The notes under the pieces are model-generated. The model made no database searches and was not told the DNA's origin. It was given only the letters and a program-made list of their open reading frames with translations. Below, piece after piece: positions 33,289 through 39,085 of a DNA stretch of 44,077 nt. Each line of letters begins with the position of its first letter. Within the stretch, counting starts at the first letter, position 1. The stretch is from Shigella phage EP23. Location: sequence record JN984867; one strand, written 5' to 3'. Made by a program: the position numbers and the translations under genes.

Positions 33289-33531
33289 TCAAGCATTTTC
33301 ATTAAAAAGATTTCGGGTAACGTAGTTGGTCGCGTTCTCGATCCAGCTTAACGGCGGGCGGTTGATGTTCTTCTCCACCCAATCGACGGCAGCTTCGCTA
33401 TAGCCGTCATCCAGCCAGCGGGTCGGATGTCTAATCATCCATGCCACCATTAACACGCCTTGCACACAATGCAGGATAAAGCCCAGCGCGCCGATAACAA
33501 ACATCAATAAGATTGCGAATACTTTATTCAT
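33289..33531 (-). CDS. small membrane protein
   Basis: 80 aa, hydrophobic segment AILLMFVIGALGFILHCVQGVLMVAWMI. Confidence 0.4.
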   Translation of the reverse strand: MNKVFAILLMFVIGALGFILHCVQGVLMVAWMIRHPTRWLDDGYSEAAVDWVEKNINRPPLSWIENATNYVTRNLFNENA

Positions 33532-34954
33532 TGCTTAAGTCCTCGTCAGTAGCTACAGACCACGCAGGGCGCGGGTCGTCGATGGGTGCTAATACCGGTT
33601 TAGCTGGTGCGCGCGTGATTTTATCACACAGCTTCGCCCATACTTTCGGCTTCTCGTCCTTCAATACCTTCTCGGCATCAGTAGGGCTGAGTAATGTTTC
33701 TTTGTACATCACATCGCGCTTGATCCGGGCCTTCGTGAAGATTTCAATCACTTCGCTTTCGTCCGCCCACTTGCGAATCCCTTCCTTACCTGCAACCATC
33801 TTGAGGCCCAGCGATTCGCCGTCGCCCGCCATCACAGCCTTGAATACCGCGGACTCGATAGCCTTGATGTGCTGGCGCATTGCGTCCAGGCCTTCATAAG
33901 CCTTGCGCAGTTCCGCGGCGGTCATAGCGCCGGGGGCCGCTTCTTTCTTGCCACGCTTCGCACGTCGTGCCGCTTTGCGGGCTTCGCGGGCCATATTGCG
34001 GTCGTGATTGGCGCATTCTTCCTCTGTCGCAATACTCACGTCGTCGCCCAGGTCTTCGTCTGTTGCCGTTGGTGGGGTCATCGTGCCGATTGCAGCCTTA
34101 GCGCGGGCGCTACACTGATCCGCAAATCTGCACCACTGACACGCATCAACGCTCGGTCGGAAGTCGGCGCGGGTGAGTCCCTTTTTTCCGCGGGAGTACG
34201 CTTCCAGGGCGGCGATAGCACGCTTGGACGCAAACTTAGCGAATATCTCCAGGGCTTCTACCGAAATATCCCACTCCGACGCCCCGCCGCAATACGGCTG
34301 GAAGATAACAAGGCGCACGGTTGTAATGTCGTACATAGTTTTCAGCTTGCGCAGCAAGCCCAGCGCATACAACATAAGCTGTTTGTTTTCTTTCGCCTCG
34401 ACCTTATGCCGCCCCGTCTTCAGGTCGCCAACAATCAGCATGTACGTGCCGTCGGTCTTCTTCATGACCATGACCATATCGGCAGTACCGAACGTCTTAA
34501 CCCGGTTGCCGTCGATCTCGAAGCCTGAGTGAAGGACGCGGGTCAGATCGGCGCGCATCTCAAGCTGAACAAACTCCGCCACTTCGAGGAGCGGTCGCCA
34601 GTGGTCGATGTACGCGTCGCACTGTTTCACCATGTCGTCGTTGACCAGTACGCCGCCTTTCGGTGCTTTCGGGTGGGCCTTTACCGGCCCCTTACCTTCG
34701 TTCTCTACGTAGCACCCTTTGTACGTCTTAGCGGTTATCAGCTTCTCCCCGGCAATGATGCGGTTTAGCACCACTTCAGATACGGTGTGCATACTCGTAC
34801 CGTTAATCGCCGCTTGCCCGGATTCGTTCGGGATATCTTTTTCCACCACCAGGGCGGCGGGACACCCCATCCATTTTTTAGCACCGGATGGGCCAAGTAA
34901 TGAGTGTTCCGTATTACTACCGGATTGCGTTTTACGTTTTGGTTTAATCGCCAT
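33524..34954 (-). CDS. PD-(D/E)XK exonuclease, Cas4/RecB-like with C-terminal Cys cluster (DUF2800-like)
   Basis: IVGDLKTGRHKVEAKENKQLMLYALGL (D-x-K, QxxxY) and DACQWCRFADQCS cysteine motif; 476 aa. Confidence 0.6.
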   Translation of the reverse strand: MAIKPKRKTQSGSNTEHSLLGPSGAKKWMGCPAALVVEKDIPNESGQAAINGTSMHTVSEVVLNRIIAGEKLITAKTYKGCYVENEGKGPVKAHPKAPKGGVLVNDDMVKQCDAYIDHWRPLLEVAEFVQLEMRADLTRVLHSGFEIDGNRVKTFGTADMVMVMKKTDGTYMLIVGDLKTGRHKVEAKENKQLMLYALGLLRKLKTMYDITTVRLVIFQPYCGGASEWDISVEALEIFAKFASKRAIAALEAYSRGKKGLTRADFRPSVDACQWCRFADQCSARAKAAIGTMTPPTATDEDLGDDVSIATEEECANHDRNMAREARKAARRAKRGKKEAAPGAMTAAELRKAYEGLDAMRQHIKAIESAVFKAVMAGDGESLGLKMVAGKEGIRKWADESEVIEIFTKARIKRDVMYKETLLSPTDAEKVLKDEKPKVWAKLCDKITRAPAKPVLAPIDDPRPAWSVATDEDLSNE

Positions 34955-35133
34955 TATTCCACCCGTGTAAACTGGACAATTACATATTTCACATTCGCCA
35001 AGCCCGCTTTTTCGACACGGCTGCGCACTTCATGCTGCGCATCGGTCCAGCACATCGAGGCGTCCTTGTTAACAACAAGAAAAGAGAAATGGTCGTTTAA
35101 TTCGTGGCAAGTTGCCAGCACGAAAAATTTCAT
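34954..35133 (-). CDS. small protein (59 aa), translationally coupled
   Basis: ATG 35133, stop TAA overlapping nuclease ATG (TAATG); hand-translated. Confidence 0.3.
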   Translation of the reverse strand: MKFFVLATCHELNDHFSFLVVNKDASMCWTDAQHEVRSRVEKAGLANVKYVIVQFTRVE

Positions 35134-35384
35134 TATTTTGTCTCCCAGCGGTCAATTGTTTTTGCTTCGGATGCAACGGCGAAGCGAACATATTCCAGAT
35201 TGGAGTCAGCCCAAATATAAAAATCGGGGTTAGTAAAGGTGGTGCGCTTAATTTGCGCGGGGGTGTTGCGGCGTTTATCTATTACGGCAACGCGGGATTG
35301 AAAGCTGCCGATGCGTTCGAATAGCCAATAGTACGGGCGCTGGTCGCGGGAATCCACCGCCTCGATTAGCGTGAATCGTGCCAT
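35133..35384 (-). CDS. hypothetical protein
   Basis: 83 aa ORF with GAGGA RBS. Confidence 0.4.
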   Translation of the reverse strand: MARFTLIEAVDSRDQRPYYWLFERIGSFQSRVAVIDKRRNTPAQIKRTTFTNPDFYIWADSNLEYVRFAVASEAKTIDRWETK

Positions 35385-35396
35385 TGTCTCGTCCTC

Positions 35397-35424
35397 TAAA
35401 AAGAGGCCCGCTAATATGCGGGCC
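35397..35424 (-). terminator. intra-operon terminator / attenuator
   Basis: On minus strand GGCCCGC-atatta-GCGGGCC hairpin followed by CUUUUU. Confidence 0.45.
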
Positions 35425-35426
35425 GG

Positions 35427-35552
35427 ATAATATTAATCTTCACCGCCGAGTTGTTTATAAACCTCGTCCGGGTCGTCGCCTCTTTCTTCGCAGAAGGCGG
35501 TGAATGCCGCCCAATTTTCTGCTATGAAATCGAGCATGATTCTCATTTCATA
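35427..35552 (-). CDS. small acidic protein (41 aa)
   Basis: ATG 35552; hand-translated MDYEMRIMLDFIAENWAAFTAFCEERGDDPDEVYKQLGGED. Confidence 0.25.
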
Positions 35553-35562
35553 GTCCATGATA

Positions 35563-36081
35563 TTAATCTTCCAGTTCGAAATAAGTTTCGACGATTTCTT
35601 TTAGCTCTTTGTGGAAGTCTTCGACGTCGTCATCTTCCAGCTTAGCGATTGATTTGATCTCGAACGATTCCAGAAGGTCGTCGAATTCGTCGTTCGCATC
35701 GTCGTCATCGCCACCGGCGATAATCGCGGCATACTGTTTGATTTCGTCGCGCATCTCCGCCAGCGGATCGGCATCTTTCTTACCTTTGCCTTTCGCCGGT
35801 GCTTTCTTAGACTTAGCCGGTTTTTCGTCTTCGGCATCGGCATCGTCGTCGTCATCTTCTACGACTTCTTTTTTGGCCTTACCTTTCGCCGGTGCTTTTT
35901 TGGTTTTCGCCGGGGCTTCGTCTTCAGCGTCGTCATCTTCTACGACTTCTTTTTTGGCCTTAGACGGCTTCTTGTCTTCCTGTTTACCAACGGCAGCGCC
36001 AACGGTTTCATAATGCTTAGCGATGATTTCCAGTGCTACTACGCCGCGAGTGATCAGGTTTACGATTTGCTCAAACATGGT
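35563..36081 (-). CDS. highly charged repeat protein (alternating poly-acidic and KKAPAKGK blocks), first gene of leftward early operon
   Basis: Start ATG 36081 (MFEQIVNL); internal ~70-bp tandem DNA repeat near 35780-35960; track ORF extends to 36306 through the leader. Confidence 0.5.
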   Translation of the reverse strand, partial: TMFEQIVNLITRGVVALEIIAKHYETVGAAVGKQEDKKPSKAKKEVVEDDDAEDEAPAKTKKAPAKGKAKKEVVEDDDDDADAEDEKPAKSKKAPAKGKGKKDADPLAEMRDEIKQYAAIIAGGDDDDANDEFDDLLESFEIKSIAKLEDDDVEDFHKELKEIVETYFELED

Positions 36082-36274
36082 ATATCTCCGATTGGTTAAG
36101 TTTAGGTGTCGACCATTAACTTCGTCGGTGGCCTTAACATAGTGCCAGGTTACGCGTTCTCCCGTTCGGGTAGTGGACCTGGTTATATAATCACGGTTGG
36201 GAATCCTGACACTTCGATCCGGCCCCTGCGTTGCCCCTCTCCAGTTTGCGTCCTGCATCCTGTCGACGAGGTGA

Positions 36275-36303
36275 ATATTAGATTGGTTGCAGAAGGGAGT
36301 CAA
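36275..36303 (-). promoter_or_regulatory. leftward promoter TTGACT-N17-TAATAT with TGCAACCAA in the spacer
   Basis: Read on minus strand: TTGACTcccttctgcaaccaatcTAATAT; ~190-nt leader before ATG 36081. Confidence 0.55.
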
Positions 36304-36313
36304 CAACTAATTT

Positions 36314-36350
36314 AAAAAAAAAAAGCGCCGAAGCAAAATGCGACGGCGCT
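36314..36350 (-). terminator. strong rho-independent terminator on minus strand in divergent intergenic region
   Basis: AGCGCCG...CGGCGCT hairpin followed (minus strand) by ~11 U. Confidence 0.65.
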
Positions 36351-36372
36351 AACCAATAAGAGACAATGAGAC
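36314..36372 (-). ncRNA. candidate ~55-nt small RNA (promoter TTGAAA-N16-TAATAA to terminator)
   Basis: Minus-strand promoter-like hexamers at ~36380-36407 immediately upstream of the terminator; no coding potential. Confidence 0.25.
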
Positions 36373-36420
36373 GGGAGTATTATTACACGCGTGCGCGCCC
36401 GTTTCAATATCCCAAAGGAG

Positions 36421-36449
36421 TTGACACCCTGCGGTTTTAGGTGTAGTTT
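36421..36449 (+). promoter_or_regulatory. rightward promoter TTGACA-N17-TAGTTT
   Basis: Consensus -35 read directly upstream of gene at 36481. Confidence 0.55.
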
Positions 36450-36480
36450 CATTGGTCATTAACCAACCGGAGACAGAATA

Positions 36481-36810
36481 ATGAATATCAACGACGCAAT
36501 CGAAATGCTAACGAAGACTGTCTGCAGTGAGACTAGCCGGTCCTGGGCGTATACCGATGCCGTGGGGGCGGTGCTATTTGAAATCGAACGTCTGCGACTT
36601 ACCGAAAAAGAATTGCGCGCGAAGCTGGAATTACTCAACGGTACGGCAGCCAGCAAGCTGCAAAAGCACAATGAAGAAATGGAAGAATACAAAAAACAGG
36701 TTATCCGTTTGCGCGCCGAGGGAAAATCCTGGGCGATGATCGCTGAGTTGACAGGAATTAATCAGAGCACCGTGCGCTCCTGGGTACGCAATAACAAAAC
36801 TTCGAAGTAA
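36481..36810 (+). CDS. HTH DNA-binding protein (putative transcriptional regulator)
   Basis: C-terminal KSWAMIAELTGINQSTVRSWVRN helix-turn-helix; GGAGA RBS; first rightward gene. Confidence 0.5.
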   Translation: MNINDAIEMLTKTVCSETSRSWAYTDAVGAVLFEIERLRLTEKELRAKLELLNGTAASKLQKHNEEMEEYKKQVIRLRAEGKSWAMIAELTGINQSTVRSWVRNNKTSK

Positions 36811-36820
36811 GGCAACGGCA

Positions 36821-39085
36821 ATGAGCTTAATTAAATTCGCTGTAACACGACCCGCTAAAAAAGGCGAAAAAGCCAGGGCGGAAAACTTCCAGATGACCAC
36901 CGATGAATTTTTCGAATTTATCAATGACGCGAAAGAAATATCATCGGTGCATATCAACAAGACCGAGGATAAAGCGGAGTATGCGCGCCGCAAGCGTAAG
37001 GCCGATGGCATCGTAGCGTATACCAGTGACGGCTTACGCCGCAAGACCAGCGCGGTGGACCGCTCGATCCTGTTCTTTGATATTGACCGCACCGACACTC
37101 GCACCTTACGCCGCTGCCGTAAGGCGTTCATTGACGCGGGTCTGGAACACGTATTCCACACAACCACCGGCGACCGCCACCCGCTTAAAGGCGGCACGCG
37201 TTGCGCTCGCTTCCTGGTACTCACTGATAAGCCGGTCCCGGCTGAAGACCTGGGCCGTGTCCAGTATGCGCTATTACATCAACTTGGTCTGTCGGATGTG
37301 GACTTCGACGATTGCACGAAAGACACAAACCGCCTGATGTACCTGCCGCACCAGCAATCGGTTATTAAGTGCCACTACGGCAAACGTGCCCGCGTCCGTC
37401 GTCTGCTTCGCCTGGCGGATACGCTTGGCGTGGAGAAGGAAGAAGTACGCCGCGAGCTTACCCAGGGCGACGACGCAGTGGCGGACGGGATTCTGGACTG
37501 GTGCTTCCAGGCAGGATTTGAGGAGTTATCTTCCGGTCGCGGTTATGAAGTGCCATGCCCGAACGAACATCTGCACAGCGGCGAAGGGTCGACGGCTATC
37601 ATGGTCAAGGATGGCGAGATCCGTTTCAAGTGTATGCACACAGGCAACGAGTGTTGCTCTGAGCTAAATAGACACCAGCACCTGGCGCTACGTCTTATCG
37701 GGATACCGGACCACCTGAACGTCGAGCCGCACAACATGTCGCGTAAGCAAATCGCCGCCATCCTGCCAGGTCTGGACGACGAGGAAGTCGAATCCTTATA
37801 TGATCATATTGTTGATGCAGTTGGCGACGGCGAAGAATACGGCGTGTGCACCGATGCGGATCTGGATAACGAGCCGGTCGCACTATTCAGTAAGCACGAC
37901 CCGATCATCGAAGGCCTGGTCAACTTCAAATCGACCTGGTACATGGCTGGCGAGTCGAACATCGGTAAATCGTTCTACGTGCTGGGCCAAATGGGCGCGG
38001 TTGCCGCGGGGATTCCGTTCGGCGGTGCGAAGGTCGTCCAGTCTCATTGCTTCTATTTCGACGCGGAAGGTGGCGAAGCCTCCAACCAGCGTAAGGAAGC
38101 ATTGCAGATCAAATATGAGCACGACCTGGACAAGCTGCACATTATTGACCTGCAATCACGCGGCTGGGATATCACCAGCAAATCAGGCTTGCGTGAAGTT
38201 ATCAGCTTCATCAACCGCACCGCTAACGGCGAGCCGGTTGGCCTGGTGGCGTTCGACTCACTCAACCAGACTGTTGCGCTGCGGTCCGCCGATGCAAAAC
38301 CGTTCGACGAGAACAACGCCAGCGATATGGGCGAAGTGGTCAAAGCGCTGAAGGCCATTGCGGAAAATACAGGCGGCAGTGCGGGCGTCATCCACCACCC
38401 GGCGAAAGGTGCAAACGGCCGCAGATCTCCCCGTGGGTCCGGCGCGCTGCATGGTGCTGTCGATTCTGCGTTCTTCCTGGAGCAACCGGACGACAACCAG
38501 CCAGGTCAATTGAACCTGTATCACGAAAAGGCACGTAACGGCATCAAGCAAGCGCCGCGCGGCTTCGTCCTGCTCAAGTGCAAGGTTAAGGTGGATCTCC
38601 GCAAGTCCGAAGCGTTCGAAGCCCACCAGTCCACCAGCACCGGGCCAGACTTCGGCGATGTGGTTGCCGGTTGGGACGTCAAACCAATTGCGTCCACCCC
38701 GCGCGACGAGACTCTATACCTCGTACCGGTAGCCCTGGCACCGTTCGCGATAGAACAGGCGAAGGCGGCGGGCAAAGCCGCAGTTAAGGAAGAGAACACC
38801 GCCGGTCCGCGCAACGAAAAAGAGAAAGTGCTTTATGCGGCCCTGGAAAAACTGATGGCAGATAACCCTGACCATACTGGATTCAGTAAATCGGCAATTG
38901 TACGCCAGGCGGGACTCGCTAAGGGTGGCACTTCGACGAAGGCAATCGACGATATGGTCGAGCGCGGCGTGATTGGTTTCTATACAGACCCGCACACCGG
39001 GGCCATATATGGGTCGTCGAATTTAGTCATCAAATCGGAGATCCCCATAACGCTTTCGGCGACCGATGACGACCTGAAAGACTAA
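36821..39085 (+). CDS. DNA primase-helicase (prim-pol-like N-terminus plus RecA/DnaB-like ATPase)
   Basis: SILFFDIDRTD acidic motif, Cys/His cluster CPNEHLHSGEG...CMHTGNECC, Walker A GESNIGKSFYVLGQ; 754 aa. Confidence 0.75.
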   Translation: MSLIKFAVTRPAKKGEKARAENFQMTTDEFFEFINDAKEISSVHINKTEDKAEYARRKRKADGIVAYTSDGLRRKTSAVDRSILFFDIDRTDTRTLRRCRKAFIDAGLEHVFHTTTGDRHPLKGGTRCARFLVLTDKPVPAEDLGRVQYALLHQLGLSDVDFDDCTKDTNRLMYLPHQQSVIKCHYGKRARVRRLLRLADTLGVEKEEVRRELTQGDDAVADGILDWCFQAGFEELSSGRGYEVPCPNEHLHSGEGSTAIMVKDGEIRFKCMHTGNECCSELNRHQHLALRLIGIPDHLNVEPHNMSRKQIAAILPGLDDEEVESLYDHIVDAVGDGEEYGVCTDADLDNEPVALFSKHDPIIEGLVNFKSTWYMAGESNIGKSFYVLGQMGAVAAGIPFGGAKVVQSHCFYFDAEGGEASNQRKEALQIKYEHDLDKLHIIDLQSRGWDITSKSGLREVISFINRTANGEPVGLVAFDSLNQTVALRSADAKPFDENNASDMGEVVKALKAIAENTGGSAGVIHHPAKGANGRRSPRGSGALHGAVDSAFFLEQPDDNQPGQLNLYHEKARNGIKQAPRGFVLLKCKVKVDLRKSEAFEAHQSTSTGPDFGDVVAGWDVKPIASTPRDETLYLVPVALAPFAIEQAKAAGKAAVKEENTAGPRNEKEKVLYAALEKLMADNPDHTGFSKSAIVRQAGLAKGGTSTKAIDDMVERGVIGFYTDPHTGAIYGSSNLVIKSEIPITLSATDDDLKD

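Follow-up and report, generated by a model that had tools for sequence, protein, structure and literature searches.

The 44,077-nt sequence of Shigella phage EP23 (JN984867; hereafter the window, meaning this stretch at its full length) carries on its minus strand a gene for an uncharacterised, widely conserved component of the phage replication module with an unusual architecture: an anchoring N-terminal helix, a charge-balanced repeat tether of variable length and a very acidic folded C-terminal domain. We call this 171-residue protein X and its coding sequence gene X (35563..36078, minus). The predicted transcript begins with a structured leader RNA, the most novel element of the locus. By analogy with known phage proteins, protein X may be a tethered acidic electrostatic decoy for a DNA-binding protein, possibly RecBCD, a reading to which we assign a probability of roughly 30%. 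Over the 1.2 kb around gene X, upwards of 150 genomes of Dhillonvirus (HK578-like) coliphages, each 42–46 kb long, show 90–95% identity, and the window is essentially one such genome.

Protein X contains 27 D and 24 E (51 D/E) against 27 K and 2 R (29 K/R), giving a net charge of −22. A preliminary description of the locus, made from the letters alone, had reported a highly charged protein of ~170 residues in which acidic runs alternate with KKAPAKGK blocks, which is borne out. It had also presented the repeats as dominating the protein; repeats are present, but only in residues 31–101, where the charges cancel, and the negative charge comes from a non-repetitive C domain. Translation starts at ATG 36078, 7 nt 3′ of a Shine-Dalgarno sequence (GGAGA, 36085..36089, minus) conserved across the aligned phages, and ends at TAA (35565–35563). 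The start assumed earlier holds up, since M1 is unchanged in 30 diverse homologues, including those without the long leader, and the alternative upstream start is not conserved; longer gene calls beginning within the leader are therefore wrong.

The first module, residues 1–30 (35989..36078, minus), is a strongly conserved amphipathic helix recognised from conservation and from an AlphaFold2 (AF2) model. M1, L8, R11, V13, A15, E17, I19 and A20 are invariant in an alignment of 30 sequences (A1), and only R11, A15, E17 and A20 remain so in a broader set of 42 (A8); R11 and E17 sit mid-helix. The helix is not transmembrane-like: the usual cut-off of 1.6 for the Kyte-Doolittle mean over 19 residues lies above the maximum for the window protein (1.32) and for a distant homologue, P0118 (1.28). 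At the other end, residues 102–171 (35566..35775, minus) form a conserved acidic three-helix domain with 27 D/E and 6 K/R within 70 residues (net −21), the source of essentially all net negative charge. Some members of the family carry a tandem pair of C domains (P0121, P0124, and P0135), and in some remote members the N helix and linker are joined to another kind of C domain that is not acidic; the latter members are assigned to other PHROGs of unknown function.

Between the two lies a disordered, net-neutral polyampholyte tether, residues 31–101 (35776..35988, minus), identified from composition, homologue lengths and AF2. It holds ~2.5 repeats of the unit KPAKxKKAPAKGKAKK-EVVEDDDxAEDE, such that acidic runs (EVVEDDDAEDE and EVVEDDDDDADAEDE) alternate with basic blocks (KKAPAKGKAKK and KSKKAPAKGKGKK). 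Its 21 K/R and 21 D/E sum to zero, and their segregation into blocks is extreme (z = 5.9, matched by 0 of 5000 shuffles). The charge blocks agree with the preliminary description, but the repeat proves net-neutral, disordered and variable, and is not the functional core. Among 98 close homologues with near-identical flanks the tether ranges from 20 to 84 residues with a bimodal distribution, corresponding to about one or two repeat units; its net charge stays near zero (median +0.5), basic and acidic counts correlate (r = 0.87), and indels preserve the frame in all 98. Distant homologues have unrelated acid/base blocks instead (EPEPEPEQEEEE...APKPKAKAKAK), so that block character persists while sequence and length do not. 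These distant tethers give low-complexity matches to TonB models, and segregated blocks in a length-tolerant spacer are also found in the (Glu-Pro)n-(Lys-Pro)m spacer of TonB and in the disordered D/E-tract and K-block regions of HMGB1 and nucleolar proteins. The likeness is one of composition, not homology, and the blocks of the window protein are Pro-poor.

The tether is encoded by direct DNA repeats (35769..35951, no strand) with periods of 81 and 93 nt rather than the ~70 bp originally proposed. A 90-nt pair of 74% identity recurs at 93-nt spacing (35769–35858 and 35862–35951), an exact 35-mer occurs twice at 81-nt spacing (35847–35881 and 35928–35962), and an exact 17-mer recurs at 93-nt spacing. 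Tandem Repeats Finder called no tandem repeat in the tether DNA because the repeat is too short and too diverged. BLAST matches at two places per record reflect just the internal repeat of gene X.

AF2 models residues 105–167 as a three-helix bundle with a predicted local distance difference test score (pLDDT) of ~90, and residues 23–100 at pLDDT <50. The same picture is obtained for a short-linker homologue, whose N helix reaches only ~50 despite a linker of just 20 residues. We considered a single four-helix bundle composed of N helix and C domain and dropped it, as no confident docking appears even with that 20-residue linker. An oligomerisation or partner-binding role for the N helix is therefore more likely.

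Protein X matches PHROG 3127 (function unknown) over its full length (E = 6.3e-53, residues 1–171 on profile positions 1–178), and the profile is also matched by the distant homologues P0125 and P0118. A word-indexed search and an exhaustive profile search over 1.84 billion representatives yielded a family of 63 clusters at 50% identity, with lengths of 115–212 aa throughout. Gene X is present in 153 Dhillonvirus records. Matches to the N helix came from another 473 records; two of these were inspected, and both are Guernseyvirinae. The carrier groups include model phages (BASEL Bas14–18, SECphi4/18) and therapy candidates. Pfam and NCBIfam returned only sub-threshold low-complexity matches (BUD22, DUF6669, TonB, FlhF, and Pol III tau linkers), and one of 42 family members matched the histone-like Pfam model HC2 weakly. 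A profile search across all sequences in the Protein Data Bank (PDB) found no match, and protein X resembles no solved structure in fold or sequence; it therefore resembles none of the solved DNA mimics (Ocr, ArdA, Gam, gp5.9, and Arn). Matches in BFVD are all family members, including Gp46 of Edwardsiella phage eiAU and a Salmonella phage MB78 protein named '13.88 kDa late protein', the origin of an odd annotation that has spread through Guernseyvirinae. GenBank labels gene X 'hypothetical protein' throughout, apart from one record with 'prohead core protein', and one record places a repeat_region inside the gene. Two described Dhillonvirus genes proved to be different genes: anti-Tmn (ORF35) is a strain-variable open reading frame (ORF) whose product has a β-sheet C-terminus, and Ksap1 (74 aa) lies between methyltransferase and phosphatase genes. 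A study of SECphi4/18 escaper mutants names the protein that binds single-stranded DNA (SSB), DNA polymerase and a 56-aa protein; gene X is not among them.

In Dhillonvirus, in Guernseyvirinae and in the most distant metagenomic members, gene X always opens one arm of a divergent promoter region, the other arm of which carries a small helix-turn-helix (HTH) gene and a helicase-primase gene. Gene X is followed by 1–3 small ORFs, a DUF2800/PD-(D/E)XK (PDDEXK_1) nuclease, an SSB of the T7 gp2.5/Enc34 type, sometimes Nmad5, and Pol A; its adjacency to the nuclease, with the 1–3 small ORFs between them, was seen in all contexts examined. Comparison of window positions 33524–39085 with five related loci (L017–L018, L027–L028, and L064) gave protein identities of 37–71%, and the stretch from helicase-primase to Pol A is a conserved T7-like replication cassette in siphoviruses. 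Synteny around gene X persists down to ~30–40% identity, and the folded parts of protein X diverge between phages (39–77% identity) much as helicase-primase and nuclease do (37–71%). This marks gene X as a core part of the replication-recombination module that is passed on vertically; it is neither a shuffled accessory nor an accessory host-takeover gene.

Expression signals surround the gene on both sides. A promoter and a ~190-nt leader had been noted earlier. A promoter-like site (TTGACT-17-TAATAT, 36275..36303, minus), which has a T/A-rich tract ahead of it, is shared by 16 phages, its −35 invariant and its −10 nearly so, and implies a leader of that length. Downstream, a terminator-like hairpin with seven GC pairs and a T-run (35395..35424, minus) ends a short transcription unit, following gene X directly or after an optional 41-aa ORF, and the next gene lies ~20 nt past the hairpin. 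Protein X is therefore probably made in excess over the downstream enzymes.

How might such a protein work? If it is a decoy, its N helix would most likely self-associate or dock onto a partner, rendering the decoy multivalent or anchored, while the acidic C domain would block the surface with which some protein binds nucleic acid and would otherwise act on replicating phage DNA; the tether would give the decoy reach, and its length would be free to vary. The tandem C domains of some members fit a valency-dependent binder. The gene orders gam-bet-exo in lambda and 5.9-6 in T7 are well established, and gene X likewise lies just 5′ of the phage's own exonuclease, which is why RecBCD, the host nuclease acting on double-stranded DNA ends, is our best guess at a specific target, weakly held. 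Lambda Gam and T7 gp5.9, DNA mimics that inhibit RecBCD, share with protein X small size, acidity, a gene just 5′ of the recombination exonuclease, expression before or with the replication genes, and conservation in phages with linear double-stranded DNA. They differ in that protein X, only a candidate inhibitor, showed no similarity to them in sequence or fold and possesses in addition a long polyampholyte tether and a conserved helix at its N-terminus. Among the genes examined around gene X we recognise no further RecBCD inhibitor; the neighbour that some records annotate as 'Gam' is really an HTH protein, so that none is evident. The idea of a DNA mimic, raised in the preliminary description, survives in part: gene X is promoter-proximal and its product contains a domain of mimic-like charge density, but it matches no solved structure. 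A decoy function of the C domain is so far only a possibility.

Several observations weigh against a decoy. Being a three-helix bundle of generic type is not enough to present charges in a DNA-like array, and a simple decoy leaves both the conserved N helix and the conserved acid/base blocks of the tether unexplained. Evolution at the rate of the phage replication enzymes fits a phage-internal partner equally well. The MB78 homologue bears the name of a late protein. In favour of a RecBCD inhibitor, small siphoviruses including Kagunavirus vary in their sensitivity to P2 Old (PMC11990801), which is thought to sense RecBCD inhibition (PMC8594841), but this evidence from the literature is indirect and not gene-specific.

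Nearly as likely is that protein X serves as a replisome or recombination hub, or as a condensate scaffold that concentrates the replication machinery. Here the N helix would oligomerise, the blocky tether would drive electrostatic self-association or contact DNA, and the acidic domain would recruit the SSB, polymerase, helicase-primase or nuclease of the phage through their basic surfaces. Acidic C-terminal tails play such a recruiting role in T7 gp2.5 and gp4. A hub would account better than a decoy for the conservation of the N helix, the block character of the tether and the co-divergence of the folded parts with helicase and nuclease. It also suits a core gene with a fixed position in the replication module of Dhillonvirus, Guernseyvirinae and distant metagenomic relatives, a charge segregation that survives in distant homologues when the sequence does not, and expression signals that suggest abundance. 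Against it, the tether can be as short as 20 residues and all but lack an acidic block (P0097), interaction with replication proteins is hypothetical, and we know of no precedent for a hub-type factor in T7-like replication modules. The Phi29 protein p16.7, a replication organiser encoded among replication genes, consists of an N-terminal hydrophobic helix, a linker and a helical C domain, and protein X shares its small size, its layout and its gene neighbourhood. The p16.7 helix, however, is truly transmembrane, and p16.7 binds DNA through a basic C domain, whereas the helix of protein X is not transmembrane-like and its C domain is strongly acidic. Gene X heads a T7-like module whose other parts are understood, and identifying the partner of its product would fill a gap in understanding how small virulent siphoviruses protect or organise their replicating DNA. 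With the natural polymorphism in tether length, an experiment on how charge blocks and spacer length matter already exists.

We consider it unlikely that protein X mimics a nucleoid protein or binds DNA in the manner of histone H1, with KKAPAKGK blocks contacting DNA non-specifically and acidic parts modulating this contact, as in HMGB1, or stripping HU or H-NS. Its K/A/P-rich blocks do resemble H1 and HU-tail repeats, and HC2 was matched, if weakly, by one member. H1 and HU-tail repeats are net positive, though, while the linker is net 0 and the protein −22; no part is less conserved than the basic blocks, most of which can be lost, and the database matches are of low complexity only.

An anti-restriction DNA mimic akin to Ocr or ArdA, also put forward in the preliminary description, is still less probable. 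T7 Ocr and ArdA resemble protein X in their dense carboxylates and promoter-proximal genes, and protein X is very acidic and probably abundant. Its fold is different and unmatched among solved structures, however, and gene X is a core gene of the replication module, not the first-entering gene of an anti-defence region. In BASEL phenotyping, Dhillonvirus showed considerable to moderate sensitivity to restriction-modification (RM; PMC8594841) and Kagunavirus high sensitivity (PMC11990801); both genera carry the protein X family, and we disfavour an anti-restriction role because both are RM-sensitive. The preliminary description is therefore confirmed, with corrections, in what it observed, and only partly supported in what it made of it.

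Very improbable, too, is selection on the DNA repeats themselves as intragenic origin iterons, as in lambda O, with the protein linker as a by-product. The repeats do belong to the replication module and have the helicase-primase gene close by; they fall within the part encoding an interdomain linker, and the exact 35-nt copies suggest ongoing homogenisation. Repeat number nevertheless varies between about 0 and 2.5 among near-identical phages from 44-kb contigs (P0082 and P0097), and distant homologues have a blocky charged linker without such DNA repeats, both of which make iterons unlikely; the frame-preserving indels of the close homologues also speak against them. A virion assembly protein (scaffold or prohead core) is hardly credible, for although scaffolding proteins are charged and helical and one record (vB_EcoS-UDS3lw) reads 'prohead core protein', that annotation has no homology behind it, and gene X lies always inside the replication operon and never in a structural module.

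The leader RNA of gene X (36106..36269, minus) spans 164 nt and folds into nine helices, P1–P9, with P1 beginning within ~2 nt of the predicted transcript start. In an intergenic alignment of 16 phages, a core of ~165 nt is almost invariant even where protein X is just ~50% identical, and it is cleanly swapped for ~16 nt in two Dhillonviruses and missing from a third. BLAST revealed diverged copies in Drexlerviridae (Motto, PHB17, tunus, slyngel, and KMI8), Murrayvirus Lumpael, Jilinvirus Arya and the unclassified BUCT618. Besides the window, the element occurs at loci L019–L026, L033, L034, L036, L042, L043 and L047–L062. Each diverged copy occupies a 200–270-nt intergenic gap, co-oriented with the flanking genes and 5′ of unrelated small genes, and inspection of the copies shows a −10-like hexamer a few nt 5′ of the first helix. 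Searched with a strict leader pattern, 185,579 reference genomes gave one hit, on a contig of 42.7 kb from a metagenome-assembled genome (MAG); this contig apart, the element is absent from bacterial genomes. Metagenomes gave 14 hits, on contigs of 39–52 kb save three, and all 15 loci are full-length model matches.

The nine-helix structure was derived by hand, and the Dhillonvirus copies served to build a covariance model. The model finds a single copy in the window (208 bits) and recovers all diverged copies at full length (95–146 bits). In the resulting alignment, 97.5% of cells are standard pairs, compared with 31–42% when partners are slid, both sides have changed in 26 of 46 pairs, and the covariation score is 0.499 versus ≤0.071 in the slid controls. 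Because the alignment is fitted to the model, pairing is somewhat inflated, but the varied helix sequences of P1, P7, P8 and P9 are plain already in the raw sequences, and compensatory changes include CCAGG/CCTGG, CCTGG/CCAGG and CCCGG/CCGGG. Invariant G-U pairs in the helices imply that the transcribed strand is the folding strand. The fold of the single sequence is not unusually stable (z = −0.36), and the structure is visible by comparative analysis only. RNAalifold on MAFFT alignments recovered it in part, because MAFFT had mis-registered four helices, a registration that the Dhillonvirus model fixed.

The element is not coding, since 4 of 15 diverse copies are stopped in all three forward frames, and an in-frame ORF within it (MQDANWRG...), which is not conserved, was rejected. 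The public gene calls P0011, P0053, P0071, P0076 and P0080 lengthen protein X by 60 codons along this ORF (36079–36258, minus); these extensions are annotation artefacts, as the frame through the leader happens to be open in Dhillonviruses.

No Rfam 15 family matched positions 36106–36269 at E ≤ 10, and the leader is a previously undescribed structured RNA family common to several phage families. It might modify polymerase in the manner of put, stabilise the 5′ end or enhance translation, sense a ligand, or act as a decoy that binds a protein. For the last of these roles, the loop of P2 (GCAGGAUGC) resembles the CsrA motif. There is no obvious expression platform in the leader, neither a terminator nor sequestration of the Shine-Dalgarno sequence. 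The put RNAs of phage HK022 are cis-acting antiterminator leaders of ~70 nt with two stem-loops. Like them, the leader of gene X is a structured RNA directly 3′ of a predicted early phage promoter, irrespective of which gene lies downstream, in an operon that has terminators; unlike them, it has ~164 nt and nine helices, with a junction of several helices. The same downstream terminator is retained where the leader is lacking, an observation that lends no support to antitermination, still a candidate role. An RNA of complex fold that has no counterpart in Rfam, is restricted to genomes of virulent phages and, in several families, sits at the extreme 5′ end of predicted early transcripts is a good candidate for a new class of riboregulator, and immediately testable.

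A second promoter-like site (TTGAAA-17-TG-AATAAT, 10/12; 36379..36407, minus), conserved across Dhillonviruses (alignment A2), lies upstream of the leftward promoter and may drive a putative small RNA (sRNA) of ~57 nt (36314..36372, minus), its 5′ end placed from the promoter. The sRNA would comprise a single-stranded 5′ part, a GC hairpin (stems 36349–36344 and 36330–36325) and a U11 run (36324–36314), and the hairpin stem covaries in two other loci (L014 and L018). The Shine-Dalgarno region of gene X (36085–36098) could pair with this 5′ part in a 13-bp duplex, with an energy of −18.3 kcal/mol that 2 of 500 mononucleotide shuffles reach; an equivalent duplex forms in L018 despite a different sRNA sequence (−16.5 kcal/mol, 10 of 500 shuffles). 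We regard this predicted pairing as a lead for translational control of gene X and not as a demonstrated sRNA. A more speculative and rather improbable proposal is that the locus is a layered regulatory cassette of kinds that are new. In it, a novel phage-specific class of leader RNA (riboswitch-like, or binding RNA polymerase or another protein), found in predicted early operons from four or more siphovirus lineages, and a promoter-adjacent anti-Shine-Dalgarno sRNA would together control an abundant oligomeric protein X, whose blocky tether and acidic head would assemble around phage DNA either a multivalent trap for nucleases or a replication-recombination compartment without a membrane.

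The 41-aa acidic ORF downstream of gene X (35433..35558, minus) is absent from L004 and L014, where the terminator directly follows gene X. It is flanked by 15-nt direct repeats (35427–35441 and 35557–35571; GAAGATTAATAT[C/T]AT), and gene X and the ORF both end in ...ED-stop; it looks like an optional cassette gained and lost by recombination at the repeat. On the plus strand, the 109-aa product encoded at 36481–36810 combines a coiled coil with an HTH_23/Sigma70_r4-type DNA-binding domain. GenBank records label it 'transposase', 'resolvase' or 'DNA recombination nuclease inhibitor gamma', and the Gam annotation is spurious.

Some records with the locus or the leader carry unexpected labels or sizes. 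The Dhillonvirus MG065648 (H48/H112) is called 'Campylobacter phage A144', the Drexlerviridae phage ON843697 (H137) 'Pseudomonas phage Motto', and the 42.7-kb contig QFQS01000013 (L048), which has the leader element, is binned into a 'Cereibacter sphaeroides' MAG. In PQ843332 (H33/H91; 88.6 kb) the locus is present more than once. Contamination, mis-binning or concatemer assembly possibly accounts for these cases.

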